DNA of 60,918 nucleotides from an uncultured bacterium (GCA_902796925.1 CADBQW010000052.1:1-60918), one strand, 5' to 3'. Positions 5,786-40,478 are shown, numbered from the stretch's first letter. Notes: generated from the letters alone by a model not told the origin. Numbers and translations are program-made.

Positions 5786-5943
5786 ATATTCCCCTTTTAC
5801 AAAAATAACCTATTCATAATAATTCAAAAACACCAATTTCGTCAAATATCTTCAAGCAACTTTACAAAAAATTTGAAAATTTGTATCATTTATGATAATG
5901 TAGGATACATAAGTAAAAATATAATTTGAAAAGGGGAAATAAT

Positions 5944-23716: not shown

Positions 23717-23944
23717 TTATTTGAACACTATAGCGTCGTAAATTTTATCTATTTTATCTTGCATATCTGAAAATTGTTCTTTTAAATCCTTGAAACTGTT
23801 TAGTGTTACAAAGCGATTTTGAATGTCGTTTAATATTTCACGATGTTTTTTCTCAAGCTGTTCGGGGGTAACAAATACTCTTTGTTGAATAAAAAATATC
23901 ATAACAACAATTAAAATAGGTGAATAGTCTAAAAAGTGTTCCAT
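23717..23944 (-). CDS. Small membrane-anchored coiled-coil protein, unknown function
   Basis: 75 aa with a strong AAGGAG Shine-Dalgarno sequence 7 nt upstream, one N-terminal TM (ILIVVMIFFI) and a charged helical tail. Its stop abuts the yidD stop. Confidence 0.6.
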   Translation of the reverse strand: MEHFLDYSPILIVVMIFFIQQRVFVTPEQLEKKHREILNDIQNRFVTLNSFKDLKEQFSDMQDKIDKIYDAIVFK

Positions 23945-23982
23945 TTTTTCTCCTTTTGGTGATTAAAATTATAAAATTGCAG

Positions 23983-24184
23983 AATAAGTTGATATAGAGT
24001 GATTTTAGAGGAATATCCATTGCGAAATGTAACAATTTCTTAATAAAGGGTTGACCCGCGGGGGGGGGGGGGTGGTGACGTATAATAGAGGTAGGTCCGC
24101 CACGCAGGGCGGGGAATTCGAGGATTTCAAATAGTTGAAAAATGAGGTTAAAATGACGGGATAATTGATTGAAATAAGTTGATA
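23983..24184. repeat. 12-bp direct repeat AATAAGTTGATA (23983-23994 and 24173-24184) bracketing a GC-rich island
   Basis: Read directly from the sequence. The two copies are exact and lie 190 bp apart. A related ATAGTTGAAA occurs at 24131-24140. Confidence 0.8.
24060..24072. repeat. Homopolymeric G13 tract
   Basis: 13 consecutive G, flanked by TTGACC (24051-24056) and TATAAT (24081-24086). Confidence 0.95.
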
Positions 24185-24288
24185 AAAGGCCATAAGGCAT
24201 TAGGGCAATAAGAGGGGAATGTCCCTTATCCTTGCCACGGTGTGTCATTCTATGCAAATAAATTAAGCAAAATTTCGCCAAAACACAA

Positions 24289-25578
24289 TCACAATTTTAT
24301 CGGCCAGTAAAAATCAACCAGGTACGATGCTGCATCAAGCGGGTGCATCAAAAATTTCTTTTCCTTATTTTGTTTGATTTGCTGATAGCTCGGTAAATCA
24401 ATCTTCGAGGTGCCTTCTATATAACACAAATTGTAAATATTATATAAAAGTTTTTCACATTTTTTGTCAATAAAAATATTAGATTCACCATCGGCATTTT
24501 TAATTTTCGCATTAAAGGCTGCTATTCGGTTTTTTATAGGCGGGTTAAAAGGTTTTATTTGGATTTCCGCATCATAACCATATTCGAGCAATTTTTTCTT
24601 TATAATAACATAATTTGTGTACTCACTCATGCAAGAACGATTGTCTCCTGAGGCATCACCGTTTATGATAATTTTACCTTTGTGGGCCGGGTATCGCCGG
24701 AGAAATTCTTCACAAGCTCGTGATGTCGTCGTATTTTCCATGGCAATTTCGTCAAAGTAAAATACTTTATCTTCGCTTTTATGCGCAAAAATCCAGCACA
24801 TAGGATCAACGTTAAAATCGCAGGTTATATGCAAATCAAATAGAGGATTGTATTTTATGTCCAGAATATTTTTGTCTGAAAAATCCTTTATAACAAGCCC
24901 TTTATCGTAAGTCCCATTTTGAGCTAAAACATAAACACGATAGTATTCTTCGTCATATAATTTTTTCAATTCATCACAATAATCTTTTGGTAAGTAAATG
25001 TTTTGGGTCGTTGGAGCGGAAATTAGCCGGTAATTGGGTGGCGGATTATTAACAAAAGTCTCATAAATCCATCCCCTATTAAATTCCGGGTTGGTATGTG
25101 CAAAAATTCTATATGTAAAATTTTTCCACTCTTTTCTTATTCTCTGCCGCATACGGCTCAAAAGCATTTTGAAAGTTTCATATGGAACTTCGGACATCTC
25201 CTCAATTTCTACAAACCCAAGATTTAGTGATTTCAATTTGTTAGGTTCATCAAAATGACGAAAAAGAATCTCAGATCCGTTTTTAAACGTAATTTTTTGC
25301 AGAGTTGACGACCACTCGTAATCTTCATCGGCCACAAACCCCATATTATCAAAATGTTCAAAATAAGTTTGTAGGGTTGTATCTCTAACTAGGGTGTAGG
25401 TTTGTGCGCCTACAAGTCCGCGAATTTTTGGGAATTTCAGTGCCAGTAATATTCCCAACAAAGAGCCTGAAAATGTCTTTCCGCTACCATAACCGCCTTG
25501 ATACACGGCTACATCCAGTGAATAATTGTGAGGAATTTCTAAAAATTCTTTTTGTGATTTAAGTAATTTATATTTCAT
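24289..25578 (-). CDS. terL: Phage terminase large subunit
   Basis: 429 aa with a Walker A motif VYQGGYGSGKTFSG, a Walker B-like GFVEIEEM, and a C-terminal RNase-H-like nuclease region (CDFNVDP...INGDASG). Confidence 0.85.
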   Translation of the reverse strand: MKYKLLKSQKEFLEIPHNYSLDVAVYQGGYGSGKTFSGSLLGILLALKFPKIRGLVGAQTYTLVRDTTLQTYFEHFDNMGFVADEDYEWSSTLQKITFKNGSEILFRHFDEPNKLKSLNLGFVEIEEMSEVPYETFKMLLSRMRQRIRKEWKNFTYRIFAHTNPEFNRGWIYETFVNNPPPNYRLISAPTTQNIYLPKDYCDELKKLYDEEYYRVYVLAQNGTYDKGLVIKDFSDKNILDIKYNPLFDLHITCDFNVDPMCWIFAHKSEDKVFYFDEIAMENTTTSRACEEFLRRYPAHKGKIIINGDASGDNRSCMSEYTNYVIIKKKLLEYGYDAEIQIKPFNPPIKNRIAAFNAKIKNADGESNIFIDKKCEKLLYNIYNLCYIEGTSKIDLPSYQQIKQNKEKKFLMHPLDAASYLVDFYWPIKL

Positions 25579-25605
25579 AATTAATTCAGTTTCTGATTTG
25601 TCGAG

Positions 25606-25632
25606 TTTTGGCCCGTCATTGACGGGCCAAAA
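25606..25632. other. GC-rich 12-bp perfect hairpin between the portal and terL genes
   Basis: TTTTGGCCCGTC-ATT-GACGGGCCAAAA. No U-tract follows it on either strand. Confidence 0.7.
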
Positions 25633-25668
25633 TGACTGATGAATAAGATATTTTGTACTAATTGAACT

Positions 25669-27342
25669 TTAACTTTGTGTATTTTCATTTGTTACTTTTG
25701 GATCTTCTACATTCTCCTTTTGAACAATAAAATTATTTACGTTTTCTATCCCGTATTGTTCAAGTGCGTATTTAAAACATTCCATCCAGTCAATATTTTC
25801 CGCAACAGAAGGGAGTTCGACAAATGAACGAATAATGTCAAAAAGTTCTTTCATTATTGCTTTTCTTGAAATACTGGCTTTTCTGTCTCCGTACCTGTAT
25901 ATGTAGTCAGAATTTCTTATTACGTCTGTTATTTCAACATAAACAGGTGTGCCATTTTCATATGCCATAATGAATTCTGATCCTATCTTGAAGTCAGAAA
26001 TTATTTCTGCAGTTTTTTCTACAATAGGTATAATTATTTTCTTACTGATATTATCAAGCAGCATATTTAATCTTGCTTCTTGACCGCTTGCTGAATAGTT
26101 TAATTCGGTTGCGGTACGCTCATAAGATTGAATGTTCCCGGCCATATTTTTGAAAATACCGGTTGCACTTTCGATAGTCGATTTGAAATAGTTTAAGAAA
26201 TCCCAACCTACCATTGCTTTATCAAAATTCAAAGGAGTTGGAGCCTGAGGCATAAGAGCAGAATCGTATTCTATAATTTTTCCGGGTTTTACAAGTTGTT
26301 CACCTTTAAAACATCCTTTTGGCGCGAGATATGGCGGGTTCATCATCAACGCAAGTGCATCTATTTGCTTATTCAAAATAGTTGATGAAAGATTGTTTAA
26401 TATAAGTGCAACTCTCAAAGGTGAAATTCCGCGTTTTGTTGACGGATTTTCAATTATGTTTGCGTGGATAAAAGGGTTTATTACATAAGGGTTTTCTTCT
26501 AAACGAATGATTTCTTTTCTTCCCGCAAATACGACAAGACGGTTTTTCAATAAGGTTCCGTCTGAAAGTTCAATATCTCCCCAAAATTCAATTACTTCAA
26601 TTTTTCCGTTGTTGTCTTTTAATTTGTTATTAGCCACCACTCCTTTCAAGGTTTCCAATTTTTCTTGTGTAAGCATATTATTAGCTTTGTCAGATATAAT
26701 ATCATCTATTGTTAAGTAGGTTCTGTAAAATTTTTTACAGCTGTCCCAAGAATCGAAATTATCTTTGTCAAAAACAAAATTCTCTGGAGAAATGAATCTG
26801 ACTTTAGGGTTGTCATAAACAACCTTTTCTTCAATAACAAAGTTTGTGTCTGGATAAAGAATTTGTTCACGAGTTGTTTTTGCTCGACGTTTCTGCTTAA
26901 CTTTTGTTTCCCAACCTACAAAAAGTGTAGCTTCGCCGGTCTCTACAACACCTGTTAAAACTTTATCAAGCTCACTTTCAAGATCCATTTTCTCAAAAAG
27001 ATCAACCAGCATAGCTTTTTGCCTGTTTGCATATTCTTGGGATTCCTTCGTTGCACCTGAGACATCAAACATTGCCTCAGGGTTCGAATATAAATTTTCT
27101 GACAAATGCGACTTTAATGTTTGGGAAAGCTCATAAATTTCAGGAAGTTCAATACCGCTTTTCCAACCGTCACGGCCTGGCAGATTGGTATTATAAATTG
27201 CATCTTGGATAATTTTGATATCGTTTAACTGTGATACCCTATCATCATTAAATTTGTCGAACATTTTGGTAAGTTGGGAAACAAGAGTTGTTTCCTCCAG
27301 GGTGTTCAATTTTGTTGTTGAATTTGTGATTTCAATTTTCAT
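25669..27342 (-). CDS. Phage portal protein (putative)
   Basis: About 557 aa, with size and position adjacent to terL. The start is set at the ATG at 27342, preceded by the AAGAAAGGAAAAAC ribosome-binding motif shared with other genes of the cluster. The track start at 27408 lacks one. The family call rests on context and general resemblance only. Confidence 0.6.
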   Translation of the reverse strand: MKIEITNSTTKLNTLEETTLVSQLTKMFDKFNDDRVSQLNDIKIIQDAIYNTNLPGRDGWKSGIELPEIYELSQTLKSHLSENLYSNPEAMFDVSGATKESQEYANRQKAMLVDLFEKMDLESELDKVLTGVVETGEATLFVGWETKVKQKRRAKTTREQILYPDTNFVIEEKVVYDNPKVRFISPENFVFDKDNFDSWDSCKKFYRTYLTIDDIISDKANNMLTQEKLETLKGVVANNKLKDNNGKIEVIEFWGDIELSDGTLLKNRLVVFAGRKEIIRLEENPYVINPFIHANIIENPSTKRGISPLRVALILNNLSSTILNKQIDALALMMNPPYLAPKGCFKGEQLVKPGKIIEYDSALMPQAPTPLNFDKAMVGWDFLNYFKSTIESATGIFKNMAGNIQSYERTATELNYSASGQEARLNMLLDNISKKIIIPIVEKTAEIISDFKIGSEFIMAYENGTPVYVEITDVIRNSDYIYRYGDRKASISRKAIMKELFDIIRSFVELPSVAENIDWMECFKYALEQYGIENVNNFIVQKENVEDPKVTNENTQS

Positions 27343-27472
27343 AGTTTTTCCTTTCTTTATTTGTAAACTGTAATTTGCCACATGAAAATGAGGCTGATGA
27401 ATTGGCATTTAATTCACCGGCCATCCTGTTTATTTTTTAAGAATTTATGTTAACCTTTAATTTACTATTTTC

Positions 27473-27546
27473 TTATTTACTTCTGTAATAACCTTTGACT
27501 TCAGTCCCCTCTGATCGCGTGTAGGAATGTACATAAATTACACCAT
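27473..27546. repeat. 74-bp direct repeat, copy 1 (3' end of the GH108 gene)
   Basis: 73 of 74 positions are identical to 29126-29199. The single difference is CCCCTCTG versus CCCATCTG. Confidence 0.95.
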
Positions 27547-28498
27547 CACCAGTTGTCGCAGCATGTTTAAGCTCGCGTTCTCTTGGAATTCCTATAGAAG
27601 AATTCATCTGAGCAAAAATCTCTTTTTCTTTAGAATTATATTCATCAGGTTTCATTGAACCTATTTCTTCACGGGTAAAAATTTTATTATCACCGGAAAT
27701 CGGATTTGTATAATTGCCAAAATTTTTTGATTCTTGCTCCTTTGGAACAATTTGACCTTCTTTTAACTGTTTGAATATTTCATCTTCATTTAATAAAAAT
27801 TCCTCTGTTGTCATATTCCCAATTTCATCAACGGTGAAGGGAAAATTTGTATTTTCTACAGAAGAAGCTTCTCCTGTTGTAATGTTGGATTTGTTTAACA
27901 GATATTGATATTTGTTTTTTTTATTTTTCATATCAGTGCTATTAGTATTGTCAATTTTTTTTAATACTCCTTTATAATCTTTATCGAAAGGGGTAATATT
28001 ATTGCTATAGGGCGGTATATAGATTCTTTGATTTACTATTTCATTCATATTAGACTCTACATCATTTAATCGATTTATCCATCCATCTTGAAATACCTTC
28101 TGTGAAGGATCTTTTTTAATTATATCACTATAATATAGCCTTCTATTCTCTAAAAAATCATAAATATTTCCGCCAGATTGTTCAAACAACTTTTTTGCAG
28201 TACTTGGACCGCTATTAACTGCGGTGTCAAATAAAATGTATCCTTCACGTAAATCTTCCTTGTTGGAGGCTCCGGAAGGTTTCCAAAATTCTTCGTAGTA
28301 CAATTTTTTTGCTTCATCTTTTGTTAAGTTTTTAACATCATTTTCACTTAACCCATTCTTTTTCCTCCAGGAATTATATGTTGATTGTGTAACACCATAA
28401 TTAGTGCTGCCACCTTTATCATATTTATTATTACTATAACCACCTTCTGAATTAAAAATATAATTTATTACAGTTTCAAATTTTTCATCAAATTTCAT
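27473..28498 (-). CDS. GH108-family muramidase with a peptidoglycan-binding region and a C-terminal extension carrying two scaffold-like motifs
   Basis: SEGGYSNNKYDKGGSTNYGVTQSTY (the Glyco_hydro_108 signature) and YYEEFWKP...ILFDTAVNSGPSTAKKL (PG_binding_3-like). C-terminal repeats FTVDEIGNMTTEEF... and FTREEIGSMKPDEY... follow. Confidence 0.75.
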   Translation of the reverse strand: MKFDEKFETVINYIFNSEGGYSNNKYDKGGSTNYGVTQSTYNSWRKKNGLSENDVKNLTKDEAKKLYYEEFWKPSGASNKEDLREGYILFDTAVNSGPSTAKKLFEQSGGNIYDFLENRRLYYSDIIKKDPSQKVFQDGWINRLNDVESNMNEIVNQRIYIPPYSNNITPFDKDYKGVLKKIDNTNSTDMKNKKNKYQYLLNKSNITTGEASSVENTNFPFTVDEIGNMTTEEFLLNEDEIFKQLKEGQIVPKEQESKNFGNYTNPISGDNKIFTREEIGSMKPDEYNSKEKEIFAQMNSSIGIPRERELKHAATTGDGVIYVHSYTRSEGTEVKGYYRSK

Positions 28499-28550
28499 GT
28501 GTTTACTCCTATATAACTACTACAAAACTAATAATTATTACAGGTAAAAC

Positions 28551-29054
28551 TTAATTTTTTGATAAGAAAAAATACAAAGCTTCTAATTCTTGAGAGCGTA
28601 TTTTCAGTATATTAGCTTTAGATGCATCTGTAATATTTCTGTGTATTGTGCCTTCTTTTTTTCCCAGGGTTTTGTCAAGTAATATCCACTGAACATTCTT
28701 ATACTCCAACCATTTTTTTTGGCTTTGATTTAACAGTAGATATTGGTCATAATCTAATATATTTTTTAAATATAAAATATACTGTTCAATCTTAAGGTTC
28801 CAATCATTGTAAGAATTTTGAACACATTTGCTCATAGCAGTTGTGGAATAATCTTTTTCAATGCATTTTTTAACTTTGACTTCAATAAGATCTATTTCTG
28901 AAACGCTATTAGTATCTTTTGTCTTATTATTTAATTCTGTTATAATATTTTCTAATTGTTTAATTTGATGTTTGCATTTAATTAAATTAATTGTATTTAA
29001 AGATAATAGAAAACATAGAAATATAAAGATAGTATAAATAAAAATTTTATTCAT
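28551..29054 (-). CDS. DUF1311/LprI-like (lysozyme-inhibitor-like) exported protein
   Basis: An N-terminal hydrophobic signal or anchor, then QKKWLEYKN...ILKIRSQELEALY, which resembles the DUF1311 helical domain. The resemblance is moderate. Confidence 0.45.
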   Translation of the reverse strand: MNKIFIYTIFIFLCFLLSLNTINLIKCKHQIKQLENIITELNNKTKDTNSVSEIDLIEVKVKKCIEKDYSTTAMSKCVQNSYNDWNLKIEQYILYLKNILDYDQYLLLNQSQKKWLEYKNVQWILLDKTLGKKEGTIHRNITDASKANILKIRSQELEALYFFLSKN

Positions 29055-29125
29055 AGACTCATTTTACCTGTAAATAAAAAATTTTCAATTACATAATAAA
29101 GCTCCTTTCTTAGTTTATAAATATT

Positions 29126-29199
29126 TTATTTACTTCTGTAATAACCTTTGACTTCAGTCCCATCTGATCGCGTGTAGGAATGTACATAAATTACACCAT
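29126..29199. repeat. 74-bp direct repeat, copy 2
   Basis: See copy 1. In one minus-strand frame it encodes GVIYVHSYTRSDGTEVKGYYRSK followed by a stop. Confidence 0.95.
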
Positions 29200-29262
29200 A
29201 TGATAAATGTTTCTTGACATAATTTGCATTTCATTTTCACGTTCATAATTTTTTTGTTTCAT
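29126..29262 (-). pseudogene. Gene remnant: intact start region (MKQKNYERENEMQIMSRNIYHMV, then stop) out of frame with a conserved C-terminal tail
   Basis: The ATG at 29262 carries the AAAGAAAGGAAAAATTTT ribosome-binding motif typical of this cluster. The 23-codon ORF stops inside the repeat. The conserved tail frame has no start codon. Confidence 0.5.
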
Positions 29263-29322
29263 AAAATTTTTCCTTTCTTTTTATTATTAAATATTATGAA
29301 TGGGTGATGCGAATAGGAATAT

Positions 29323-29841
29323 TTATTTGCAGTTAATATTTTTGTTTAATAGTCCGTAAATCTCAACATCTTGAGGAATTGCGTTTTTTATGGTTTCTGA
29401 TTTAAAAAACCCTTCTTTTTCAAAACCGCAATAATTCAAAATACTCCTGACTCTGTTATTTTCAGGGTAAATACAGGCTTTTAGTTTGTGCAAATTAAGG
29501 TTTTCAAAGCATAGAGAAATAAATTCGTCAGCAACTTTTCTGGTAAACTGCCCCCAAAATTTTTTATCCAAGCATACTGTTAACTCTGCGCAGTGTATGT
29601 AATCTTTGGAACCTATAAGTTCATCAAGATAAATGAAGCCTGCATAGCTTTCGTCGGCAAGTATAACCCAAAATAGAGGGGATCTTTCCAAGATAAATGT
29701 ATAAATATAATTTATTCCAAATTGATTTTTTGAAAAGTCATCCCCCAAAAACTTTCTGTAGCGAATGTATAATAATAATATTTTGGGGAAATATAAATGT
29801 ATATTTTGTCTTGTTATTGATAAAAATTTTGGGCTCATCAT
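29323..29841 (-). CDS. GNAT-family N-acetyltransferase (RimJ/RimL-like)
   Basis: 172 aa. HKLKACIYPENNRVRSILNYCGFEKEGFFKSE matches the acetyl-CoA-binding and C-terminal pattern of Acetyltransf_3-type GNATs. An ATGA overlap joins it to the upstream gene. Confidence 0.7.
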   Translation of the reverse strand: MMSPKFLSITRQNIHLYFPKILLLYIRYRKFLGDDFSKNQFGINYIYTFILERSPLFWVILADESYAGFIYLDELIGSKDYIHCAELTVCLDKKFWGQFTRKVADEFISLCFENLNLHKLKACIYPENNRVRSILNYCGFEKEGFFKSETIKNAIPQDVEIYGLLNKNINCK

Positions 29842-30200
29842 CGTTCTAACACGATCTTTTCAAATGAAATAAAGTTTCCGTCTGATTCAAATACAGAAAG
29901 TTCACCTTTTAGTATTTGTTCTCTCAAATCGTCACGCAAACCTAAAAATCCGTCGGCTTGAATCCCCGTAATAAATGATTCAACTTTAGTTTTTCGATTA
30001 AAAATTTTAAATATGGAATCTTTTGAAAATATCTTTTCTGCGGGAACATTGCTAATGTTTCGTTCTTCAAAAAATTCCGGCTTCTTTTGTGAATTTTTAA
30101 TTTCTTCTTCCAACTCCTTTTGCATTTTCATTTTAATAAGTTCGTCAAGAGATTTTCCTGAAAGAAGAACTTCTTCAATGTTGTTTTCTGTGTTTTTCAT
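29838..30200 (-). CDS. Hypothetical phage protein, translationally coupled to the GNAT gene
   Basis: 120 aa, acidic and helical, with the conserved AAGAAAGGAAAAATT ribosome-binding motif. I recognised no family. Confidence 0.55.
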   Translation of the reverse strand: MKNTENNIEEVLLSGKSLDELIKMKMQKELEEEIKNSQKKPEFFEERNISNVPAEKIFSKDSIFKIFNRKTKVESFITGIQADGFLGLRDDLREQILKGELSVFESDGNFISFEKIVLER

Positions 30201-30287
30201 AATTTTTCCTTTCTTATAATTAAAGTATTGCTAAGCTGAATTTAAGTAAATATTATTCAGTCAACGTTTATGCTTATCCAAATAAAC

Positions 30288-30719
30288 TTATATTTTATCT
30301 TCATCAAGGTTTTCGATAGTGATTATACGCGGCAAGTTACTTTCTAAATCCTGTTTAGACGAAATGTCCAAATATTTTGCAAGACTTTCAAGGGCTTTCA
30401 ATCCTGCTGATGTATCACGAAGTTTCTTTTTTCCGGTATAGTTACCGTCTTTATCAAGAATATCTTCGACTTCAAGCGAAAATTCCGCAATCTGTAAGAG
30501 TTTTTTAACTACGTAACCTTTCTGAATTCTCAAAGATTTAATCTGAAAATCCATTTCATTTTTTATTTCCTTGATAATTTTTGGATTAGCAAGAAGTCTG
30601 CGTGCAAAGCCGGCTTTATCCTTTATTTTGTAACCGGCTTTTTCAACAGACAACGAACCGTCAAGTGTTTTTACATATTCTTGTATAAAAATTTTTTGTT
30701 GAGGGGTAATATTTTTCAT
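30288..30719 (-). CDS. terS: Phage terminase small subunit
   Basis: ITPQQKIFIQEYVKTLDGSLSVEKAGYKIKDKAGFARRLLANPKIIKEIKNE matches the Terminase_2-type N-terminal HTH pattern. Confidence 0.75.
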   Translation of the reverse strand: MKNITPQQKIFIQEYVKTLDGSLSVEKAGYKIKDKAGFARRLLANPKIIKEIKNEMDFQIKSLRIQKGYVVKKLLQIAEFSLEVEDILDKDGNYTGKKKLRDTSAGLKALESLAKYLDISSKQDLESNLPRIITIENLDEDKI

Positions 30720-30762
30720 TGTTCTTATTTGTAAATAATTATTTATTAAGCTTTGTTAAAAG

Positions 30763-30791
30763 TTGTACATTATTGAATTTGCATGTATAAT
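30763..30791 (+). promoter_or_regulatory. Candidate sigma-70 promoter on the strand opposite to the phage genes
   Basis: TTGTAC, a 17-nt spacer, then TATAAT (a perfect -10 preceded by TG). Chance matches are common in AT-rich DNA. Confidence 0.3.
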
Positions 30792-30826
30792 GAACATGCT
30801 ATTTATATTTCGGCTAGTGTAAATCT

Positions 30827-30860
30827 AAACAGGGGGAGATGAAAACTTCCTGTTTTTTTT
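30827..30860. terminator. Intrinsic terminator hairpin, potentially bidirectional
   Basis: AAACAGGGGG/CTTCCTGTTT stem of about 10 bp including two G-U pairs, followed by T8 on the plus strand and UUUAGAUUU on the minus strand. It lies 16 nt downstream of the stop of the 222-aa gene. Confidence 0.65.
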
Positions 30861-30875
30861 GCCTTAAATTGAATG

Positions 30876-31514
30876 TTAATTACGCGAGAGCTTTACATGA
30901 GGGGTATCATTTGCAGAAGGAGATGAGTCTGCAACCAGATTTGCTAAAGCGGTTTTATACATGGATAGCCAGTAGTTGAATCGTATATGTTGAGGGTTAC
31001 CCTTTAGGCGCATACATGTTCCATATACAAGTATTGGCTCAGCAAAAGGATCTGGAATGAGAGTTTCATCGTCAAAGAATTCCAGTGAAGATTTTTCAAT
31101 ACCGTTATTATTTTTAGTTGAATTCAATGTGTAGTATACGATTTCAATTAGTTTATCTTCCCTAAATTGAGGTAAAAGAATTTTATCGTTAAAAATTGTA
31201 TAAGTGAGAGGTTTCTGTTCATTTGTGAAAAATTTTTCAAAATTATCATCGTATAGATATTTTTGATTATCAATAGTCAGGTATAAAATTTTTCCAAAAA
31301 TGGGGTTTTCAATATCTCCGGTATTTGCCGGCAGAGAAACAGTTTTTGTTCTTAAGAGAAAATTCCATTTAAAAGAAGAACATATTTCAGAATTAATAAC
31401 GTTTATTATATTTTTAATTTTTATATGTTCATTCTTAACAAGTTCAGAAAAAGAGTTAACGGACTTATAGTTTAATTCAGTAAGACATTTGTTAATAATA
31501 TTTAAGTAGTTCAT
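30876..31514 (-). CDS. Hypothetical phage structural protein (possible head-tail adaptor)
   Basis: About 212 aa. The start is set at ATG 31514 (MNYLNIINK), preceded by AAGAAAGGAAATTTT. The track's longer start lies inside the upstream terminator hairpin. The function is inferred from position only. Confidence 0.5.
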   Translation of the reverse strand: MNYLNIINKCLTELNYKSVNSFSELVKNEHIKIKNIINVINSEICSSFKWNFLLRTKTVSLPANTGDIENPIFGKILYLTIDNQKYLYDDNFEKFFTNEQKPLTYTIFNDKILLPQFREDKLIEIVYYTLNSTKNNNGIEKSSLEFFDDETLIPDPFAEPILVYGTCMRLKGNPQHIRFNYWLSMYKTALANLVADSSPSANDTPHVKLSRN

Positions 31515-31531
31515 AAAATTTCCTTTCTTAT

Positions 31532-31567
31532 AAAAAACCGGCAAATCCGACGTAACGGATTTGCCGG
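31532..31567 (-). terminator. Strong intrinsic terminator after the coat/scaffold genes
   Basis: Perfect 12-bp stem CCGGCAAATCCG/CGGATTTGCCGG with a 6-nt loop, followed by U6 on the minus strand. Confidence 0.85.
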
Positions 31568-31588
31568 TAAACGTGAGTTTATCTGGAA

Positions 31589-32221
31589 TTACTTGATTTG
31601 CCCTTTTCGCAATTGATCCATTATGAGCTTTTCATTTTTTAGGAATTCGTCAGTTGACATTTTGCCAATGTCAGCGCGGGTAAAGAGCTTTTGATAAGGA
31701 GTTGATGAAGATGAGTTTTGGGCATTGGTATTCAATTTCATTTTTGCTTGAGAATTTTCTTTTTCAAGGTTCTCCCCAAGTTTAAGTTCATCCAGATAAT
31801 TTTTAACTGCATTCTTTTCTAAAGATTCAATTAATTTTGTTATCTGTAAAATTTCGTCGTCATCAAAATCGGTATCCAGTCCTTTAAGATATTCCAAGAC
31901 CTCCTGACGCCCATTTTTATTAAAGAAATCGGTATTATCAAGGGCAGTTCCAACCGAGAAATCCTGCAATAGTTTTCTAGTTTTTTCAATCGCATTGTTA
32001 GTAAGTTCCGCGACTTGATTTTCATTAATTTTCCCTTGGCGTAGTAAGTTTTCAATATTCGCGAATTCTTGAGCAAGAATTCTTTGAACAAGGGATCTTG
32101 ATATAGTACCGTTTCCATCATTTATTATTTCATTGCCGGTTGGTATTGAAATATCTTGTGGACCTTGATTTGTGAAAGACGGCAAATCTGATTGTAATTG
32201 GTTTTGTTTTTCTGTGTTCAT
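31589..32221 (-). CDS. Scaffolding-like protein
   Basis: 210 aa, helical, acidic and Q/N-rich, located next to the coat gene. The C-terminal motif FTRADIGKMSTDEFLKNEKLIMDQLRKGQIK is present. No head protease gene occurs in the cluster. Confidence 0.55.
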   Translation of the reverse strand: MNTEKQNQLQSDLPSFTNQGPQDISIPTGNEIINDGNGTISRSLVQRILAQEFANIENLLRQGKINENQVAELTNNAIEKTRKLLQDFSVGTALDNTDFFNKNGRQEVLEYLKGLDTDFDDDEILQITKLIESLEKNAVKNYLDELKLGENLEKENSQAKMKLNTNAQNSSSSTPYQKLFTRADIGKMSTDEFLKNEKLIMDQLRKGQIK

Positions 32222-32223
32222 AT

Positions 32224-32472
32224 TTAGCCTTCCTGTTTATATTTCTGTTTGGTTTTCATATATGCAACTGCAAATTCTACAGCATCATCAATAAAATGAG
32301 AGAGAAACAATTCAATAATTGGTTTAAACCAAGCTGCTACTGGTAAATTTGATATAATAAAATTAATTGCGGCAGTTTTCTTGGCCTTTCCGGATTGTGA
32401 TTTCATTTCTTCTTCCATTTTTTCTACTGCGATTTTTGCAAGATTTTTAATCTGAGCTTTTATATAGAGCAT
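32224..32472 (-). CDS. Small phage protein, possibly holin-like
   Basis: 82 aa. SGKAKKTAAINFIISNLPVAAWFKPIIELFLSHFIDDAVEFAV loosely resembles LL-H-type holins. It has one moderately hydrophobic segment. The call is weak. Confidence 0.25.
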   Translation of the reverse strand: MLYIKAQIKNLAKIAVEKMEEEMKSQSGKAKKTAAINFIISNLPVAAWFKPIIELFLSHFIDDAVEFAVAYMKTKQKYKQEG

Positions 32473-32489
32473 AATTTCACCTCTAAAAT

Positions 32490-33347
32490 CTATGCAGCAG
32501 ATACAATCATTTTTGCAAGAGCGTTTGGTTGAACAGTTTTTGCACCGTATAAATATAAACCTCTGACCAAATCTGAGAAGCTATCTTTATCTCTTAATGT
32601 TTCAATTTTAGCCAATTGAGAGGCAAAAGTAATTGCATCATTAGTACCCGCGAGTACGTAATACTTGTTGTTGGTTGCAGTTAAGTTTGTGCTTACTAAA
32701 ACATCCATTCCTGCAATTCTTCCGATGGCACCGTTTCTTAATGTTTCATCTGCAACATTGTGAGCACCAATAAATTCTGGGCTTTGCAACAAGTAAGATT
32801 CTACGGTAGGATTTATAACAACCCAAGGGTGACTTGTTGAAGATACCGCATTAGAATTTTTTAGAGCAAGAGCCAGTTGCACGAATTTTTCATAAATAGT
32901 GGTTTTGCTTAATGTAATAGGAGATGCCTCTGTTCCAACAGTATTTGCACTAACTACATTCGTGTGTTGTGATAACAAGTATGAATCTTGAACTTCTTCG
33001 ATTGCTTTTTTTGCATTTGCAAGGTGAGCTTCCATAATATCGGTGTTAGCTTGAACTTTGGCAACATCATTAATTTTGAAGGCGAAAAATTTCTTTTGAT
33101 CAATTACAAGTTCCATAGAAGTTGGTTCAAGTTCAGAATATGTAATAGCTGATGAACCTAAAGTTGAAACTGAAACTGCAGCGGGTGTAATAATTTTAAC
33201 TTTGTCACCTTGATTTGCTATTTCACCTTCCCAATTCCTGTTAACACATTGGAGCATAACACATCCTTTTTCAAGCATGGCATTTAATTTGTTACTCCAT
33301 ACTTCCGGGATGAAAGCTGAATAAGAGTTTGTTGTTTCTTCTGACAT
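32490..33347 (-). CDS. Major capsid protein, P22-coat-like (HK97 fold)
   Basis: 285 aa. The N-terminal IPEVWSNKLNAMLEKGCVMLQCVNRNWEGEIANQGDKVKII matches the P22_CoatProtein-type pattern. Confidence 0.75.
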   Translation of the reverse strand: MSEETTNSYSAFIPEVWSNKLNAMLEKGCVMLQCVNRNWEGEIANQGDKVKIITPAAVSVSTLGSSAITYSELEPTSMELVIDQKKFFAFKINDVAKVQANTDIMEAHLANAKKAIEEVQDSYLLSQHTNVVSANTVGTEASPITLSKTTIYEKFVQLALALKNSNAVSSTSHPWVVINPTVESYLLQSPEFIGAHNVADETLRNGAIGRIAGMDVLVSTNLTATNNKYYVLAGTNDAITFASQLAKIETLRDKDSFSDLVRGLYLYGAKTVQPNALAKMIVSAA

Positions 33348-33397
33348 AATTTTTCCTTTCTTTTACTTATACTGTCACTAATCGACATAATGTCGAA

Positions 33398-34921
33398 TTA
33401 TTCATCAAGATAAATTTCTCTAAATTGCAACCCAATAATAGAGCAAGATGAATTTAAATCACGTCCTTCAATACAAATCAAAACAGAGTAGTTTGAACCT
33501 GAAATTTCTGCTTTTTCCAGAACTTCTTTATTTACTGCCCATAAAGGAGTTCCGTCATTTTCAGAACCCCAAAAACATGGCAAATTATCAAAAGTATCAT
33601 CATCTGAGGCAAAATATAGTTGATCTTTTTGGATTGAATATATTTCTTCCGAGTCTTCATAAAGTTGCCCATCGTAATCCTTGTATAGATACATCTTGAA
33701 TTTATTATCATTTTCATCATCAATTAAGAAATAAAATTCATCAATTAATTTTCTCTTGTGAGGATTAATAAATGATAAAAATGGAGATTTCCACATAAAT
33801 TGTATAGGTTGTCCATTAAACGTATTCCCCGTATCTTCTTGAAAAATATTACCCTCATCATCGCAAGTTAGTATTGAATCATCATATATGCAGGCTGACA
33901 CAATGTTTTGCGGGATAATTCTTTTATACCAAGCATTATTAACATAATCAAAAATTAAAACTTTATTCAGGTAATCGTTAGCAGTATATGGAATGAAATA
34001 CCAAATTTGATTTCTTTTTGCATAGTGTAAGCAAATTGAATATTGTATCTGTGAATGATTAAATTTGTCAAATTCCAGCTTTATATTTTCAGCAATATTA
34101 CTTCCAAGGCGAATTTGATTAAGTTCTCCGATTTCCTCCAACGGAAAGATTCCGTGCCCAAGAAAGTACTGTTTATTTTGGACATTAACAATTGCATCGT
34201 TAGCAAAAGTTCCCGAATCAGCAAGTTGCTGAATTTTAAAATCTTCATGACTGGTACCTGACAACAGGTAAACGGAACTCTTTTTATATATTGCAAGGTA
34301 ATCCCTATAAGGTTTGAGTGCAGTGATATAGTCAGTTTTGGTATAGAAATCTCTTATATACCCGGCATCATTTGCTTGAGTAAAGTCATCATAAGTTCCC
34401 AGTGCAGAATAGTATATAGTAGAATCTTTTGCAACCCAAACTCTGCCGCCAAAAACAGTAATTATACCGTTTGTAATTGTATTGTTATTTTCATCTTTTA
34501 AATTACAGTCTACAATATCGTAATTTTGATTATTTTTAATATAAAATAAACCGTCACTTTCCGACATAACGAGCAGTCCGTCAAGGAAACCAACCGTTCT
34601 TAAATGAACTCCGGTAATACGTTTAGAAAGTAGAGTCAGATTTTGAGTTATAGAATCGTGTATATATAGTTTACCGGAATAAGTTGAAATAAAAAGTTTT
34701 TTACTTTCCATTTTAGAAATTTCAGAAATACACGTAATTTTTTCATCATCCGGTATAGATAAGAAAACGATATTTCCACGTTGCTTTATAATACCTCTAT
34801 TTTTATAGATTTCGATATTTTCGGAATCTGTCCAATAGAGTTTTTTTGTATAGCTTCCGAGTTCGGTTCTTGTAAGTGCTTGATTTATCCCTCCGGATAA
34901 ATCGTAATAAGCTGTTTCCAT
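33398..34921 (-). CDS. Large phage structural protein (putative tail/nozzle, beta-propeller-like)
   Basis: 507 aa. The N-terminus YYDLSGGINQALTRTELG...IEIYKNRGIIKQRGN resembles podovirus tail or stabilisation proteins, and the composition is repetitive and beta-rich. This is context-based. Confidence 0.4.
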   Translation of the reverse strand: METAYYDLSGGINQALTRTELGSYTKKLYWTDSENIEIYKNRGIIKQRGNIVFLSIPDDEKITCISEISKMESKKLFISTYSGKLYIHDSITQNLTLLSKRITGVHLRTVGFLDGLLVMSESDGLFYIKNNQNYDIVDCNLKDENNNTITNGIITVFGGRVWVAKDSTIYYSALGTYDDFTQANDAGYIRDFYTKTDYITALKPYRDYLAIYKKSSVYLLSGTSHEDFKIQQLADSGTFANDAIVNVQNKQYFLGHGIFPLEEIGELNQIRLGSNIAENIKLEFDKFNHSQIQYSICLHYAKRNQIWYFIPYTANDYLNKVLIFDYVNNAWYKRIIPQNIVSACIYDDSILTCDDEGNIFQEDTGNTFNGQPIQFMWKSPFLSFINPHKRKLIDEFYFLIDDENDNKFKMYLYKDYDGQLYEDSEEIYSIQKDQLYFASDDDTFDNLPCFWGSENDGTPLWAVNKEVLEKAEISGSNYSVLICIEGRDLNSSCSIIGLQFREIYLDE

Positions 34922-34932
34922 AAATCCTCCTT

Positions 34933-35421
34933 TTAAATTTTATTTCTGTACCATTGAATTTTTGATCTAATAAAATTTCCAATCTCATTTTCCTTAACGA
35001 AGGGGTAAGGAGGGAGATAAATAATATCTATTTTCCCGGCACTAGTTGATTGGGGATGTTTTAGTCCGAATTCATAATGAGTTAAAACTGAATCAGGAGT
35101 AATTGGGATATTATATTTTTTCGAAAGTTTTGCACAAAAATCCATAGCCGCTTCAAACTGAATTTTACAAATAGGATAATGACCTACATTAAATCTGCTT
35201 TGAAACCCACTCATAGCGCAAAGAGCGACCCCTATTGCACCGGTATTTCCGCCACCGGTGTGGGCGGCATATTTACCCTTAATGCAGACTTCATTATTCT
35301 CAGGGGCGAAAATTCCATTATACACTTTACCATTTTTATCAATCATAAAGTGATAACACAATCTATCATGTGCGCAGGGATAATAACCTCCTGCACTCCA
35401 GTGTAGTATTATTTTTTTCAT
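34933..35421 (-). CDS. N-acetylmuramoyl-L-alanine amidase (Amidase_2/PGRP, T7-lysozyme-like)
   Basis: IILHWSAGGY...YHFMIDKNGKVY...AAHTGGGNTGAIGVAL...VLTHYEFG matches the zinc amidase_2 pattern. Confidence 0.75.
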   Translation of the reverse strand: MKKIILHWSAGGYYPCAHDRLCYHFMIDKNGKVYNGIFAPENNEVCIKGKYAAHTGGGNTGAIGVALCAMSGFQSRFNVGHYPICKIQFEAAMDFCAKLSKKYNIPITPDSVLTHYEFGLKHPQSTSAGKIDIIYLPPYPFVKENEIGNFIRSKIQWYRNKI

Positions 35422-35435
35422 AAGAAACCTTTCAA

Positions 35436-35639
35436 TTATTGATTTAAATTCATGCCTGATAAAACGTAAAAAATTACTGCTGCATTTACGCGATTACGTG
35501 CATTTAATTTTAAGATGCCTCTATCTATATAAGTTCTTACGGTACCATATGCGATATTTAATTTAATACCTATTTCTTTATCTGAATAGCCTAGTACCAC
35601 TAAATTCCAGACAGCATGTTCTCTGACTGATAGTTTCAT
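35436..35639 (-). CDS. LuxR/GerE-type HTH transcriptional regulator (stand-alone DNA-binding domain)
   Basis: 67 aa. LSVREHAVWNLVVLGYSDKEIGIKLNIAYGTVRTYIDRGILKLNARNRVNA is the GerE-family HTH. Confidence 0.8.
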   Translation of the reverse strand: MKLSVREHAVWNLVVLGYSDKEIGIKLNIAYGTVRTYIDRGILKLNARNRVNAAVIFYVLSGMNLNQ

Positions 35640-35732
35640 AATTTAATCCTTTTCGTATTCCAAAATTTTTCCTATATTTTCTACAATACAGGAAATGAAA
35701 TTTACAAAGTTCATAATGTTTCCTGCGTTCAA

Positions 35733-35757
35733 GAAAAAAGGGGAATAAAATTCCCCT
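35733..35757 (-). terminator. Intrinsic terminator after the Cys-rich gene
   Basis: 8-bp stem AGGGGAAT/ATTCCCCT with a 3-nt loop, followed by a U6-7 tract on the minus strand. Confidence 0.75.
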
Positions 35758-35811
35758 ATAGGAAAATAGGATTAGTAATGATAATATGGGGGATAAATTA
35801 AAAAAGAAAGA

Positions 35812-36231
35812 TTAACATTTCCCGATTTTTAAAGTTTTTAAATTGGAGTAACAACGTTTTTTAACTCCAAATTCGTTGTAATTTAGGTAGAACCTTCCAA
35901 CTGGTACCTTGGAATAATCCTTGGGCTTTTCTTCATATAAGATAAATTTTTTAAGTTTATTAAAAAATTTTTTTCCTTTTGAATTGAATTTTTTAATAAC
36001 GCTTAAATTATCATTATTATCAATTCTGGTCAGTTGAACACATAGATTGCCGCATACCGGACATTTACTCAAATAATCAATTTCGCAGACGACGAACTGT
36101 GCTTGAGGAATCAGACAATAAGTCCTGGTTCTCCTCAAGGCACCACAACAGTGTATAAAACCCATTTTAGATCTACTCCCGCCGATTACTCGGCACTGAT
36201 ACCTTCTCGGGTAGCAAACGGAATTTGCCAT
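35812..36231 (-). CDS. Cysteine-rich basic protein (putative zinc-ribbon), unknown function
   Basis: 139 aa with at least 9 Cys including CPVCGNLC, and a lysine-rich C-terminal half. It forms its own transcription unit. The ATG at 36231 is used; the track start is a TTG 3 nt upstream. Confidence 0.5.
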   Translation of the reverse strand: MANSVCYPRRYQCRVIGGSRSKMGFIHCCGALRRTRTYCLIPQAQFVVCEIDYLSKCPVCGNLCVQLTRIDNNDNLSVIKKFNSKGKKFFNKLKKFILYEEKPKDYSKVPVGRFYLNYNEFGVKKRCYSNLKTLKIGKC

Positions 36232-36415
36232 CAAAAGTTGTTTTAACTTTAGGTGTTTTTCACACCCGGGCTTGAACCTTAACTACATTTTTAGTATAAC
36301 TTGTTTTTTAATCTTCACAAGTCCCCAAAAAAGAATACCTTAAATTGTGTAAGCATTTTCATGGATATTCTTATATAAAATTTATTTGTAGTAAAATATA
36401 ACTCAAGGAGTTATA

Positions 36416-38825: not shown

Positions 38826-40475
38826 ATGATAGAAAAAGTAAGCGTAGTAAATTTAAACAAAAGACAAAATACCCCATCCACATCGACTGATAAACAAACA
38901 TCATTTAGCGGTTTAGGTGATGGCTTTATTCAGGCTATACAATGGTGTGAAAAATATCCTATGCTAAATGTAAGTGTACTGGATTTATCTACAGCAATAA
39001 TTCCAAGAACGGCTGTGGAAACAAAAGAGGCAAATGCATATGCCGGTTTTGAAGCATTTCGTCGGGAGAGTTCCGGATTAATTGTAAACTGTTTACTTCC
39101 CGGTTTTATAGTTTTGGGCTTATCCAGAATTTTGCAAGGCACGATAATGGGTGATTTCAAGAATTCTAAGGGCATCTATGGTTCTTGGGCAAATTCTGAT
39201 AGCTTAGACAAAATTCAAAAATATTATACGGAAGCCAAAGGGGAAGGCAGAGATAAAGTAAAAAATATGTTCACCAACATGTTTAATGATCTTGAAGGGG
39301 TTGATGGTGACGTATCAAAAGATGGACTAAAGGATTTCTCAAAACTTTACAGTAAACATAGTGAAGATTTTGACAAACATTTAAATACGCTTGTTGATGA
39401 GATAATGAAAGACAAGCCGAATAACAAAGTTGTAAAAAAAGCTATTGCAGACATAATTAATACAACCCATATATCAGAAAATATCAGATTCAAAGGGGAC
39501 AAGGAATTTTTCACAACTTCCTTTGACTCTTTATACAAAAGTGCAGTAAAAATGACAAACGGCATTCGCAAGGAAGGTTTGACAACAATACCTGATGTAG
39601 CGAAATACATATCAAGAGCAAAGAAACTGGTAAAAGTAAAGAGTTTAGCCGGACTTGGAATAGTTATACCTTTGGCCATATCAATGCAACCTTTGAACAG
39701 ATGGATAACGTCAAAACATTCAGGAAAGAAGGGTGCTCCGATATACAAAGATTACATTGAATCAGAACATAAAGAATTAACATCTGATGAAAAATCAAAA
39801 CTTTTAAAACAGAAGTTTGTATCAATTGGTTCAATGATTGGTGTGGCGATTCTTTCGATGATGAAATTACCGTCAATGAAGGTATTGGAATTCAAAGGTT
39901 TGTTCCCATCCATGGATCAAGCTAGGATAATTTCGACTGCTACATTTGCAAGCAGGATGGCAACATCAGAAGATAGAAACGAACTGAGAGAATCAACTAT
40001 TAGGGACATTGCAACATTCTCCGGATTATATTTCTTGGGTGATTACGCTGCAAAGGCTATAGCAACCGGCATTGAAAAATTTAATAAAGATATTCATCTG
40101 GTAAATAAATTAAAACCTGTAAAACCTGATGCCGGTACACTTTCGAAATTCTGGCACTGGGTAAAGAATACAAGTTTGAAGTCATCAGATGAACTAAGGT
40201 CTGCAAAAGAAAGACGATTAAGAACGGTATGTCAGTTAGGGAATTTAGCATTCTCACTTCTTGCGCTTGGGATATTTATTCCGGAACTATACAAGGCTCA
40301 GACGAATAGGAAACGTCAGCAGGAACTTGAAAAACAAGCACAAGTTGATAACAAGAGTAACAAAAGCAATAACACATCCACTAAAGTAATGTCAGACAAA
40401 TATGTTTATGATATTATGGATGCGGATATGAGTACCCCATTTAAATCATTTTTCAGCTCTCAAAGGATAAAGTAA
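38826..40475 (+). CDS. Large membrane protein, unknown family (paralog A)
   Basis: 549 aa with several hydrophobic segments. It shares conserved blocks with the next gene (VLDLSTAIIPRTAVE, SMQPLNRWITSK, FKGLFPSMDQ, NELRESTIRD). Confidence 0.7.
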   Translation: MIEKVSVVNLNKRQNTPSTSTDKQTSFSGLGDGFIQAIQWCEKYPMLNVSVLDLSTAIIPRTAVETKEANAYAGFEAFRRESSGLIVNCLLPGFIVLGLSRILQGTIMGDFKNSKGIYGSWANSDSLDKIQKYYTEAKGEGRDKVKNMFTNMFNDLEGVDGDVSKDGLKDFSKLYSKHSEDFDKHLNTLVDEIMKDKPNNKVVKKAIADIINTTHISENIRFKGDKEFFTTSFDSLYKSAVKMTNGIRKEGLTTIPDVAKYISRAKKLVKVKSLAGLGIVIPLAISMQPLNRWITSKHSGKKGAPIYKDYIESEHKELTSDEKSKLLKQKFVSIGSMIGVAILSMMKLPSMKVLEFKGLFPSMDQARIISTATFASRMATSEDRNELRESTIRDIATFSGLYFLGDYAAKAIATGIEKFNKDIHLVNKLKPVKPDAGTLSKFWHWVKNTSLKSSDELRSAKERRLRTVCQLGNLAFSLLALGIFIPELYKAQTNRKRQQELEKQAQVDNKSNKSNNTSTKVMSDKYVYDIMDADMSTPFKSFFSSQRIK

Positions 40476-40478
40476 CAT

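Follow-up and report, generated by a model that had tools for sequence, protein, structure and literature searches.

To our knowledge, elements resembling gene transfer agents (GTAs) have been described from few lineages: Alphaproteobacteria, Brachyspira, Desulfovibrio, Methanococcus and, since 2026, Faecalibacterium. The locus examined here lies in a stretch of 60,918 nucleotides from an uncultured bacterium (GCA_902796925.1, CADBQW010000052.1:1-60918; this whole stretch is hereafter the window, with positions counted from its first letter) and consists of a phage-derived gene cluster of 12.6 kb at 23717-36330 (hereafter the element). Its gene content and its conservation among relatives make it probable that the element is a domesticated, podovirus-derived, GTA-like particle producer of the Gastranaerophilales, a group of the non-photosynthetic Cyanobacteriota/Vampirovibrionia. 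The closest known analogue is FpGTA of Faecalibacterium prausnitzii, a 10.5-kb podovirus-like GTA-like operon whose fibres and lysis genes lie at a second locus (PMC12946183). Described in January 2026 in Nat Commun from the Firmicutes, FpGTA is the first podovirus-like GTA-like element (PMC12946183).

Both FpGTA and the element are clusters of about 10 kb from gut anaerobes that code for TerS, TerL, portal, scaffold, coat and short-tail proteins but carry no genes for an integrase or for replication, and both are near-ubiquitous in their host clades. The cluster described here is without fibre genes, which matches the second-locus fibres of FpGTA. This likeness is architectural only, the proteins having been compared by description, and the hosts belong to different phyla. 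The element further differs from FpGTA in having its lysis genes within the cluster, a full-length TerS, two regulators and two conserved non-coding elements.

Similarities extend to the RcGTA type of the Alphaproteobacteria and to BaGTA, VSH-1 and Dd1, which like the element are domesticated head and packaging clusters, vertically inherited under purifying selection and free of replication and integration genes. The GafA protein of RcGTA finds a counterpart in the element's candidate small sigma-region-4-like activator. In contrast, RcGTA is siphovirus-like, with a tail tube, a tape measure and an HK97-gp5-type capsid, whereas the element has podovirus features: its portal and adaptor are of SU10 type, its nozzle is of gp10/gp12 type and its coat resembles that of P22. 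Since neither a tail tube nor a tape measure appeared in the Pfam, PHROG or fold assignments, the element does not belong to the RcGTA-like family (Rhodogtaviriformidae) and is an independent domestication outside it. A literature search returned no paper linking Melainabacteria or Gastranaerophilales with gene transfer agents, and we regard the element as a strong candidate for a new, independently derived GTA-like system with two candidate new RNA elements, from a phylum not known to have a GTA.

Gene Content of the Element

A sequence-only reading of the window had proposed a compact phage head, packaging and lysis cluster at 24289-36231. The cluster is real but slightly larger, as it also takes in a 75-amino-acid (aa) gene at one end (23717-23944) and a promoter-like region and leader at the other. 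All genes are co-oriented on the minus strand (23717-36165), and control sequence upstream of the first gene reaches about 36330. The open reading frames (ORFs) were searched with profile hidden Markov models (HMMs) from Pfam, PHROGs and NCBIfam; Pfam and PHROGs reproduced the gene calls of the sequence-only reading, and two gene starts were revised, to 36165 for the Cys-rich gene (117 aa) and to 31514 for the adaptor gene. Fourteen genes form the core of the element. Their conservation was assessed in the 80 best-scoring loci of 212 species-representative genomes, and ratios of nonsynonymous to synonymous substitution (dN/dS) are Nei-Gojobori medians. From first to last, the core genes are:

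35812-36165, minus strand: Cys/His-rich protein, 117 aa, the first gene (start ATG at 36165)
35436-35639, minus strand: stand-alone GerE/LuxR-type helix-turn-helix protein, 67 aa (PF00196, E 8e-12; Sigma70_r4_2, E 4e-5)
34933-35421, minus strand: Amidase_2 peptidoglycan amidase, an endolysin (E 4e-11; PHROG endolysin, 3e-33)
33398-34921, minus strand: podovirus tail nozzle/hub of the P22 gp10 / T7 gp12 / SU10 class, 507 aa (AlphaFold2 and Foldseek)
32490-33347, minus strand: major capsid protein, P22-coat-like (phrog_267, E 8.5e-54; homologues carry PF25209)
32224-32472, minus strand: holin-LLH-like small protein, 82 aa (weak matches: phrog_6918, E 8e-7; TIGR01673, below its cutoff)
31589-32221, minus strand: scaffolding-like protein (position, low-complexity/helical character, local matches in phage relatives)
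30876-31514, minus strand: podovirus head-to-tail adaptor of the T7 gp11 / SU10 class, 212 aa (AlphaFold2 and Foldseek)
30288-30719, minus strand: TerS (Terminase_2, E 3e-13; full length including the N-terminal region; dN/dS 0.06)
29838-30200, minus strand: conserved 120-aa protein (no family match; orthologues in 71 loci; dN/dS 0.16)
29323-29841, minus strand: GNAT acetyltransferase, RimJ/RimL-like (profile HMMs)
25669-27408, minus strand: portal of SU10 type (SU10_portal PF23899, E 1e-20; phrog_332, E 5e-36; dN/dS 0.04)
24289-25578, minus strand: TerL (Terminase_3, E 2e-21; Walker A and nuclease motifs intact)
23717-23944, minus strand: 75-aa protein, the last gene (N-terminal transmembrane segment and coiled coil)

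The head, packaging and stub-tail set is complete (TerS, TerL, portal, scaffold, coat, adaptor and nozzle). It is accompanied by a lysis set made up of the Amidase_2 endolysin and small membrane proteins, and by two small putative regulators, the Cys-rich and the GerE-type protein. No ORF of the element matched an integrase, excisionase, repressor, polymerase, primase or helicase family in Pfam, PHROGs or NCBIfam, and the ORFs lacking a family match are all 210 aa or shorter; the search for an integrase or replication module concealed among them found none, in line with what had been read from the sequence. With morphogenesis, packaging and lysis genes only, the element is not a complete temperate tailed phage. 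It has the form of a GTA: a chromosomal head, packaging and tail cluster without modules for replication, integration or lysogeny control.

Housekeeping genes flank the cluster, as had been noted: FliF/FliH/FlhA/YidD lie at one end, RsmE and the CCA enzyme at the opposite end. No tRNA was found in the window, and no direct repeat of at least 11 nucleotides (nt) of the attachment-site (att) kind connects the two element boundaries. The GC content of the element is slightly below that of the flanks, yet inside their range.

Two proteins that the sequence-only reading had listed as structural could be named more precisely by comparing folds, with AlphaFold2 alignments built from database homologues. 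The model of the 507-aa protein (predicted local distance difference test, pLDDT, 73) retrieved in Foldseek the Pa223 tail (E 1e-17, TM 0.70), SU10, VP1, P22 gp10, the PhiM1 nozzle and T7 gp12. The protein also matches phrog_3287, and by tblastn its sole relatives among isolated phages are HMO-2011-type podoviruses. A sequence-profile search of its alignment against the PDB gave WD40 noise only, so that the fold search was needed. The model of the 212-aa protein (pLDDT 86) retrieved cyanophage A4 (E 1e-9), KHP30, VP1, SU10 and T7 gp11, and many of its orthologues carry PF24175 (SU10_adaptor); here the sequence-profile search against the PDB yielded a marginal tail-tubular-A match only, and the fold search settled the identity. 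These proteins are thus the tail nozzle and the adaptor, and the element encodes a stub tail rather than being tail-less.

The remaining head and packaging proteins were assigned from profiles or position. TerL shows 89% mean column identity (dN/dS 0.025) and the coat 78-86% identity across the 80 species (dN/dS 0.10), while conservation in TerS is lower in the N-terminal region than in the rest of the protein. The true start of the portal is probably Met23. A scaffold role is inferred for the 31589-32221 product, whose local matches in phage relatives are proteins encoded between portal and coat. Its body evolves fast, and its C-terminal stretch of about 30 aa is conserved (FTRxxIGKMSxxEF..IMxQLRKGxI), with the motif present in 81/81 orthologues.

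Conservation, Selection and Chromosomal Context

The coat protein has 1827 database relatives. The best 120 of these are at least 81% identical to it, except one at 67%, lie on contigs of up to 419 kb, and carry source names that are mainly Melainabacteria or Gastranaerophilales. With one genome taken per GTDB species, a coat relative is encoded in 212 species. The 80 loci all come from metagenome-assembled genomes of Gastranaerophilales/Melainabacteria type, including two complete chromosomes; a few records bear other organism names.

Gene order of the 14-gene core is the same in all 80 loci, with hot spots for variable inserts at the GNAT/portal, portal/TerL and TerS/120-aa junctions. Core reading frames are intact in essentially every locus, and apparent short TerL ORFs reflect non-ATG starts. 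Purifying selection acts on all 14 families, with median dN/dS from 0.025 (TerL) to 0.30 (scaffold and 82-aa protein); constraint is strongest on TerS, TerL and portal (0.025-0.06). Synonymous sites are saturated between most species, and gene order and reading frames are nonetheless kept. Where examined, there is one element copy per genome locus. The argument against advanced decay that had been drawn from the intact ORFs of the window therefore extends to collinear, intact clusters in 80/80 loci.

The dominant chromosomal context has FliI, ZupT and a radical-SAM/SPASM gene upstream (ZupT/radical-SAM in 37-47 of 55 loci) and a 574-aa protein gene downstream, followed by RsmI; the 574-aa gene is present in all 42 loci whose sequence continues for 2 kb or more beyond the element. 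Distances between core proteins (coat, portal, TerL) and distances between host flank proteins (ZupT, radical-SAM, with or without FliI) are of similar magnitude and correlate with a Pearson coefficient of 0.85, a value reached in 0 of 2000 permutations of a Mantel test. The core thus co-diverges with its host flanks, as domestication predicts. Clade-wide occurrence, vertical inheritance and purifying selection are all in agreement with a GTA, with a context that differs in the window lineage and about 12 loci.

Phage Relatives

Among isolated phages, no coat is more than 43% identical to that of the element, and the best "phage" record is MW495066.1. A scan of IMG/VR with the single TerL protein gave no match, whereas an alignment-based scan found two groups. 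The first is the same element on contigs of 5-19 kb (34 loci, TerL 73-81% identical), which represent the same chromosomal locus. The second consists of viral contigs of 20-44 kb carrying distant homologues, that is, free-phage relatives, so that the same genes do occur in larger phage genomes, as the sequence-only reading had suggested looking for. Identities on the 20-44 kb contigs are 48-63% for TerL, 26-31% for the portal, 24-55% for the coat, 25-32% for the nozzle, 25-29% for the adaptor and 25-29% for the GNAT protein.

These contigs share a canonical order, TerS-TerL-portal-scaffold-coat-adaptor-nozzle-...-GNAT, against which the order of the element is scrambled; the atypical arrangement noticed from the sequence is therefore genuine, and the element is a cut-down, re-ordered derivative of a podovirus lineage. 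The GNAT gene has homologues (25-29% identity) in the structural modules of the phage relatives L121, L124, L125 and L128 (L121:13137-13676, L124:18298-18825, L128:about 18463-18852). Given this placement, a role in morphogenesis is more probable for it than that of a moron, or accessory gene. More distantly, SU10, HMO-2011-type and P22/T7-like podoviruses share the portal, adaptor, nozzle and coat fold families with the element. In contrast to it, they are autonomous, 40-75 kb in size and equipped with replication, fibre and ejection proteins, and their identity to the element is below 35%.

The record MW495066.1 carries a related module. The locus (L081, MW495066.1 200663-225478) is filed in GenBank as "Microcystis phage MaAM05" (PhiMa05); a 2026 paper contends that the record is a fragment of a Vampirovibrio-like bacterium that holds a "prophage remnant" (PMC13623518), and a reply has appeared (PMC13623530). 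Related coat and portal genes have been called "prophage remnant" in Vampirovibrio-like/Melainabacteria sequences (PMC13623518). The module is homologous to the element (coat 43%, SU10-type portal 22%, nozzle 29%, 75-aa protein 31% identity) and differs from it in having canonical order, a fibre-like gene and an M15 endolysin; it runs SU10 portal, coat, Pfam SU10 adaptor, nozzle homologue, fibre-like gene, 75-aa homologue, M15 endolysin. Its surroundings are housekeeping genes (ftsH, proS, lepA, pgcA, tRNA-Arg), and neither TerL nor TerS was detected in the 25 kb examined. These observations fit the published doubt about MW495066.1 as a phage genome.

Promoter-Like Region, Leader RNA and Ultraconserved Block

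Control sequences of the element comprise the following features:

36293-36330, minus strand: promoter-like region of the first gene (GGACTT.. box, about 17 nt, TATACT; -10 at 36293-36298)
36210-36288, minus strand: predicted structured 5' leader RNA (P1, bulged G, P1b, internal loop, P2 with a variable hairpin insert)
35739-35757, minus strand: intrinsic terminator after the Cys-rich gene (hairpin and T-run in 65/67 loci)
31537-31568, minus strand: strong intrinsic terminator after the coat-scaffold block (13-bp stem)
30764-30868, plus strand: ultraconserved non-coding block between the adaptor and terS genes

The promoter-like box is conserved across 67 aligned upstream regions, with TATACT invariant in one alignment of the region, and the GGACTT../TATACT region presumably functions as a promoter. 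Directly after the TATACT box and before the Cys-rich gene lies the leader, which is 46-80 nt long. A 14-pair model of its structure is 98.3% paired over 47 sequences, as compared with 29-56% in slid controls. Seven pairs change on both sides (67 cells), and 0 of 500 shuffles reach the observed covariation score. Some lineages carry species-specific hairpins inserted in the apical loop, as an RNA would show. A covariance model found exactly one leader copy per locus, always before the Cys-rich gene, with copies scored in 66 genome loci, 14 more (12 metagenome loci, L148 and L103) and the window; the phage relatives and the Vampirovibrio-like locus L081 gave no match to the same model. When the leader and the ultraconserved block were compared with Rfam 15, nothing passed the gathering thresholds, and an E-value threshold gave chance-level matches only. 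The leader is a candidate riboswitch, protein-binding or antitermination element.

Two other interpretations of this region were rejected. A 15-codon upstream ORF in the leader (ATG TGG TTA AGG ...) is broken in frame by loop-length indels, and its ATG is missing in many species. A palindrome upstream of the promoter-like region, TCCATGAAnnCATGGA, was considered as an operator. Some species have unrelated hairpins in its place, and the copy in the window is degenerate; termination of the upstream host gene is its likelier role.

Strong terminators had been listed among the signs of an intact element. Two good ones stand on the coding strand, as given above, while the overall count is not above shuffled expectation (11 versus 7.6 +/- 2.5). 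A GGAAWYATTAT box (35723) follows the first terminator and lies upstream of the GerE/LuxR gene in 66 loci.

The second conserved element is the block between the adaptor and terS genes. Its 36-nt core, GTTAAGATTTACACTAGCCGAAATATAAATAGCATG, is identical in 100/105 loci with one copy each, and synonymous sites are saturated between these genomes. The plus strand holds TGTACA-N16-TATAAT (30764-30791), followed by two hairpins and a U8 terminator (about 30798-30860), and the G-U pairs of the terminator stem exist only on that strand. The block therefore reads as a putative small RNA gene of about 65 nt on the strand opposite to the element genes. On the minus strand, an overlapping TTTACA-N16-TAGCAT promoter-like site precedes terS.

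In 52 of 55 metagenome loci the block sits between the adaptor and terS genes, and in the other three it occurs away from the element (L168:5436-5510, L212:about 5900-5990, and L159), with no element gene near it in L168 and L212. It was not found in the phage relatives or in L081. Its presence outside the element argues that it is an independent unit, not just a terS promoter or a packaging (pac) site, either of which is weakened as an explanation by these three loci. Pairing of the putative small RNA in trans with the leader (GUAAAUCUUAAC / GUUAAGGUUCAC, 11/12 complementary bases) is unsupported because U/C variation in the leader has no counterpart in the block, which stays invariant.

Proposed Mechanism and Alternative Explanations

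Collinearity, intactness, purifying selection, co-divergence with host genes and the scrambled gene order together support domestication, the GTA-like possibility that the sequence-only reading had raised. Under such a scheme, a signal would act on the promoter and structured leader of the Cys-rich first gene, and read-through or re-initiation past the following terminator would produce the GerE-type activator and then turn on the structural and packaging genes. Procapsids would assemble on the scaffold, and in the window lineage a capsid-targeting motif may co-load a GH108 muramidase. The terminase would fill heads by the headful mechanism from chromosomal DNA that is neither excised nor amplified, and the adaptor and nozzle would close the portal. 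Finally, the amidase and holin-like proteins would lyse the producer cell, and the particles would carry mostly host DNA; GTAs proper are defined by packing random host DNA in fragments below the size of their own cluster. For receptor binding, a gene elsewhere in the genome may be responsible, as is the case in FpGTA and RcGTA.

A fuller version of this proposal, in which an ancient, independently domesticated podovirus is a true GTA in Gastranaerophilales (with another arrangement in Vampirovibrio-like relatives), switched by the leader RNA and associated with the ultraconserved small RNA, is tentative; we consider it possible rather than probable.

Several observations weigh against GTA-like domestication. 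FpGTA is known to form particles with packaged fragments of 8-9 kb, whereas the element is described here from the genomes of uncultivated bacteria. No fibre, needle, ejection-protein or receptor-binding gene was recognised in the cluster. TerS keeps its N-terminal region, unlike the TerS of RcGTA and FpGTA, which are reported to lack the DNA-binding domain, so site-specific initiation of packaging is possible; at 12.6 kb, the cluster might also be small enough to fit into its own capsid. The 80 loci are the best of 212, and the sample is therefore biased towards conservation.

The chromosomal context also bears on this question. A single locus had been proposed as a mark of domestication, and most loci do share the dominant context, but the window, L148, L149 and about a dozen further loci have other neighbours. 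The flanks of the window (YidD, RsmE) were found in none of the 80 loci. In the close relative L148, accC lies upstream of the element, and EF-P and AccC of L148 are 94-95% identical to those of the window at 5.9-8.5 kb; L149, another near relative of the window, also has the element in a different context. Because the neighbours vary in this way, the DNA around the element must have been rearranged or, rarely, the element itself must have moved; occasional relocation is possible.

A separate observation in L148 is that, about 4.5 kb upstream of the element (L148:1-2690), there are genes for a transposase of Mu type and an AAA ATPase resembling TniB, together with an integrase-like fragment. 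These transposition genes are a possible driver of local rearrangements.

Packaging could be directed rather than random. In a pac-initiated "lateral-transduction" machine, TerS would recognise a site inside the element, for instance close to the ultraconserved block, and one-way headful packaging would proceed into the adjacent chromosome. This would suit a full-length Terminase_2 protein whose gene has the 36-nt invariant core immediately upstream, and with no excision or replication genes any packaging would take place in situ. We consider it unlikely in view of the block's occurrence without an adjacent terS in L168, L212 and L159, its small-RNA-gene signals on the other strand, and the lesser conservation of the N-terminal region of TerS.

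Particles could also serve to kill competitors, or to bring about programmed lysis with DNA release, rather than to deliver genes. PBSX of Bacillus resembles the element in being chromosomally fixed and non-replicating; it packages host DNA and lyses its producer, as the element is predicted to do. From that precedent, a particle that packages DNA can be conserved and defective and yet not transduce (a point taken up in PMC12946183), and the element has two or more peptidoglycan hydrolases and no recognised fibre or ejection proteins. However, PBSX kills rather than transduces by means of a contractile tail and is under SOS/Xre control, whereas the element has neither a tail sheath nor an Xre-type repressor. 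Moreover, the tightest constraint falls on TerS, TerL and portal, a pattern not easily reconciled with packaged DNA that has no role. A killer or lysis particle is accordingly quite unlikely.

The sequence-only reading had also allowed for a satellite or a decaying prophage, and selection, intactness, co-divergence and the lack of boundary repeats leave both unsupported. A capsid-forming satellite would be horizontally mobile and would borrow replication, fibres or both from a helper phage. The cf-PICIs, the described satellites of this type, are comparable in size and, like the element, make coat, portal, TerS, TerL and head-tail connectors of their own but no tail fibres; the context varies in some lineages, and copies are listed in IMG/VR as 5-19 kb viral contigs. 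No integrase, replication module or att site was found in the element, whereas cf-PICIs have all three and are mobile and helper-dependent. The absence of an integrase, primase or replication gene, att repeats and tRNA target, the co-divergence with host flanks at one dominant locus, the single copy per locus where examined and the identity of the IMG/VR contigs with that same locus make a satellite very unlikely. A defective prophage decaying neutrally would account for the missing phage-essential modules and the scrambled order, but is hardly credible for 14 genes that are intact in essentially every locus, have dN/dS far below 1, keep order and frame despite saturated synonymous sites and are accompanied by conserved regulatory RNA and DNA elements.

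If the GTA-like interpretation is correct, the element adds an independent podovirus domestication in Vampirovibrionia, the sister class within Cyanobacteriota, and gut Melainabacteria would swap chromosomal DNA through self-made particles, a route of gene exchange for a widespread uncultivated gut lineage with small genomes. Bacterial DNA in "phage" preparations, for example the disputed PhiMa05 genome, could then stem from such particles. Public databases would need new labels for hundreds of entries now called "Caudoviricetes", provirus or "prophage remnant", and the cluster provides a concrete locus to seek in long-read data from virus-like particles. The leader and the block are candidate new RNA families, and the leader, with its clear covariation, could expose how particle production is controlled.

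Regulators, Lysis Genes and Lineage Cargo

The Cys-rich protein has orthologues in 67/80 loci (dN/dS 0.12), with invariant residues H5, C6, C7, C35-P-x-C38 and C105 in their alignment, and it has no match in Pfam, PHROGs, NCBIfam or the PDB. It is a putative zinc-binding regulator, its regulatory role being inferred from the position of the gene. The GerE-type protein, conserved in 76 loci, is akin to the small cyanobacterial PedR, though it falls under that family's cutoff, and is a candidate sigma-region-4-like activator of the structural genes. The sequence-only reading had considered this LuxR-type regulator as possible host-type control; it is part of the element instead.

Amidase_2 is likewise conserved in 76 loci, and a homologue adjoins TerL in the free-phage relative L121. 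The 75-aa gene stands directly after terL and is conserved in 54 loci. In the Vampirovibrio-like locus L081 its homologue lies about 70 nt upstream of the M15 endolysin gene, as the next gene before it, and the 75-aa protein is a candidate holin or lysis accessory.

Two further genes had been counted with the cluster, and they are present in the window as cargo of its lineage, not as conserved core:

28551-29054, minus strand: LprI/DUF1311 protein, lineage cargo
27473-28498, minus strand: GH108 muramidase (E 5e-25), lineage cargo

Together these genes (27473-29054) are absent or variable in other loci. They are bracketed by a 90-bp direct repeat, 92% identical between its copies at 29110-29199 and 27457-27546, one of which forms the 3' end of the GH108 gene; the GNAT/portal junction of L148 and L149 holds different small genes. 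The repeats suggest gain or replacement of cassettes by recombination at this junction. In addition, the C-terminal motif of the scaffold (31589-31681) occurs twice in the C-terminal half of GH108 (27605-27838), at 57% and 48% identity, in the shared form FTRxDIGKMSxxEF..NE..I..QL+.GQI. This sharing suggests a capsid-targeting signal that would load the hydrolase into particles.

The 574-aa neighbour of the dominant context (L013:17763-19487, plus strand) has homologues at L168:3028-5316 and L212:3726-5837, two element-free loci in which it adjoins the ultraconserved block. The family spans 574-762 aa and is fast-evolving (45% mean identity), with a conserved N-terminus, MGLAASQARFLA.T.RK, and a C-terminal coiled coil. 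As a tail-fibre candidate it gave no homologue in Pfam, PHROGs, NCBIfam, the PDB or phage genomes, and the window lacks it. Elsewhere in the window (38826-42173, plus strand), adjacent proteins of 549 and 564 aa appear by eye to be paralogous membrane proteins and have no Pfam match at E <= 1e-5. They were considered as fibre candidates and set aside, and by eye they show no likeness to the 574-aa neighbour.

Between terL and the 75-aa gene, the window has a spacer of 344 bp (23945-24288) that is specific to it, the spacer being about 15 bp in other genomes. Inside it lies a 13-nt G/C homopolymer (G13, 24060-24072), unusual at 33% GC, which could reflect phase variation or an assembly artefact.

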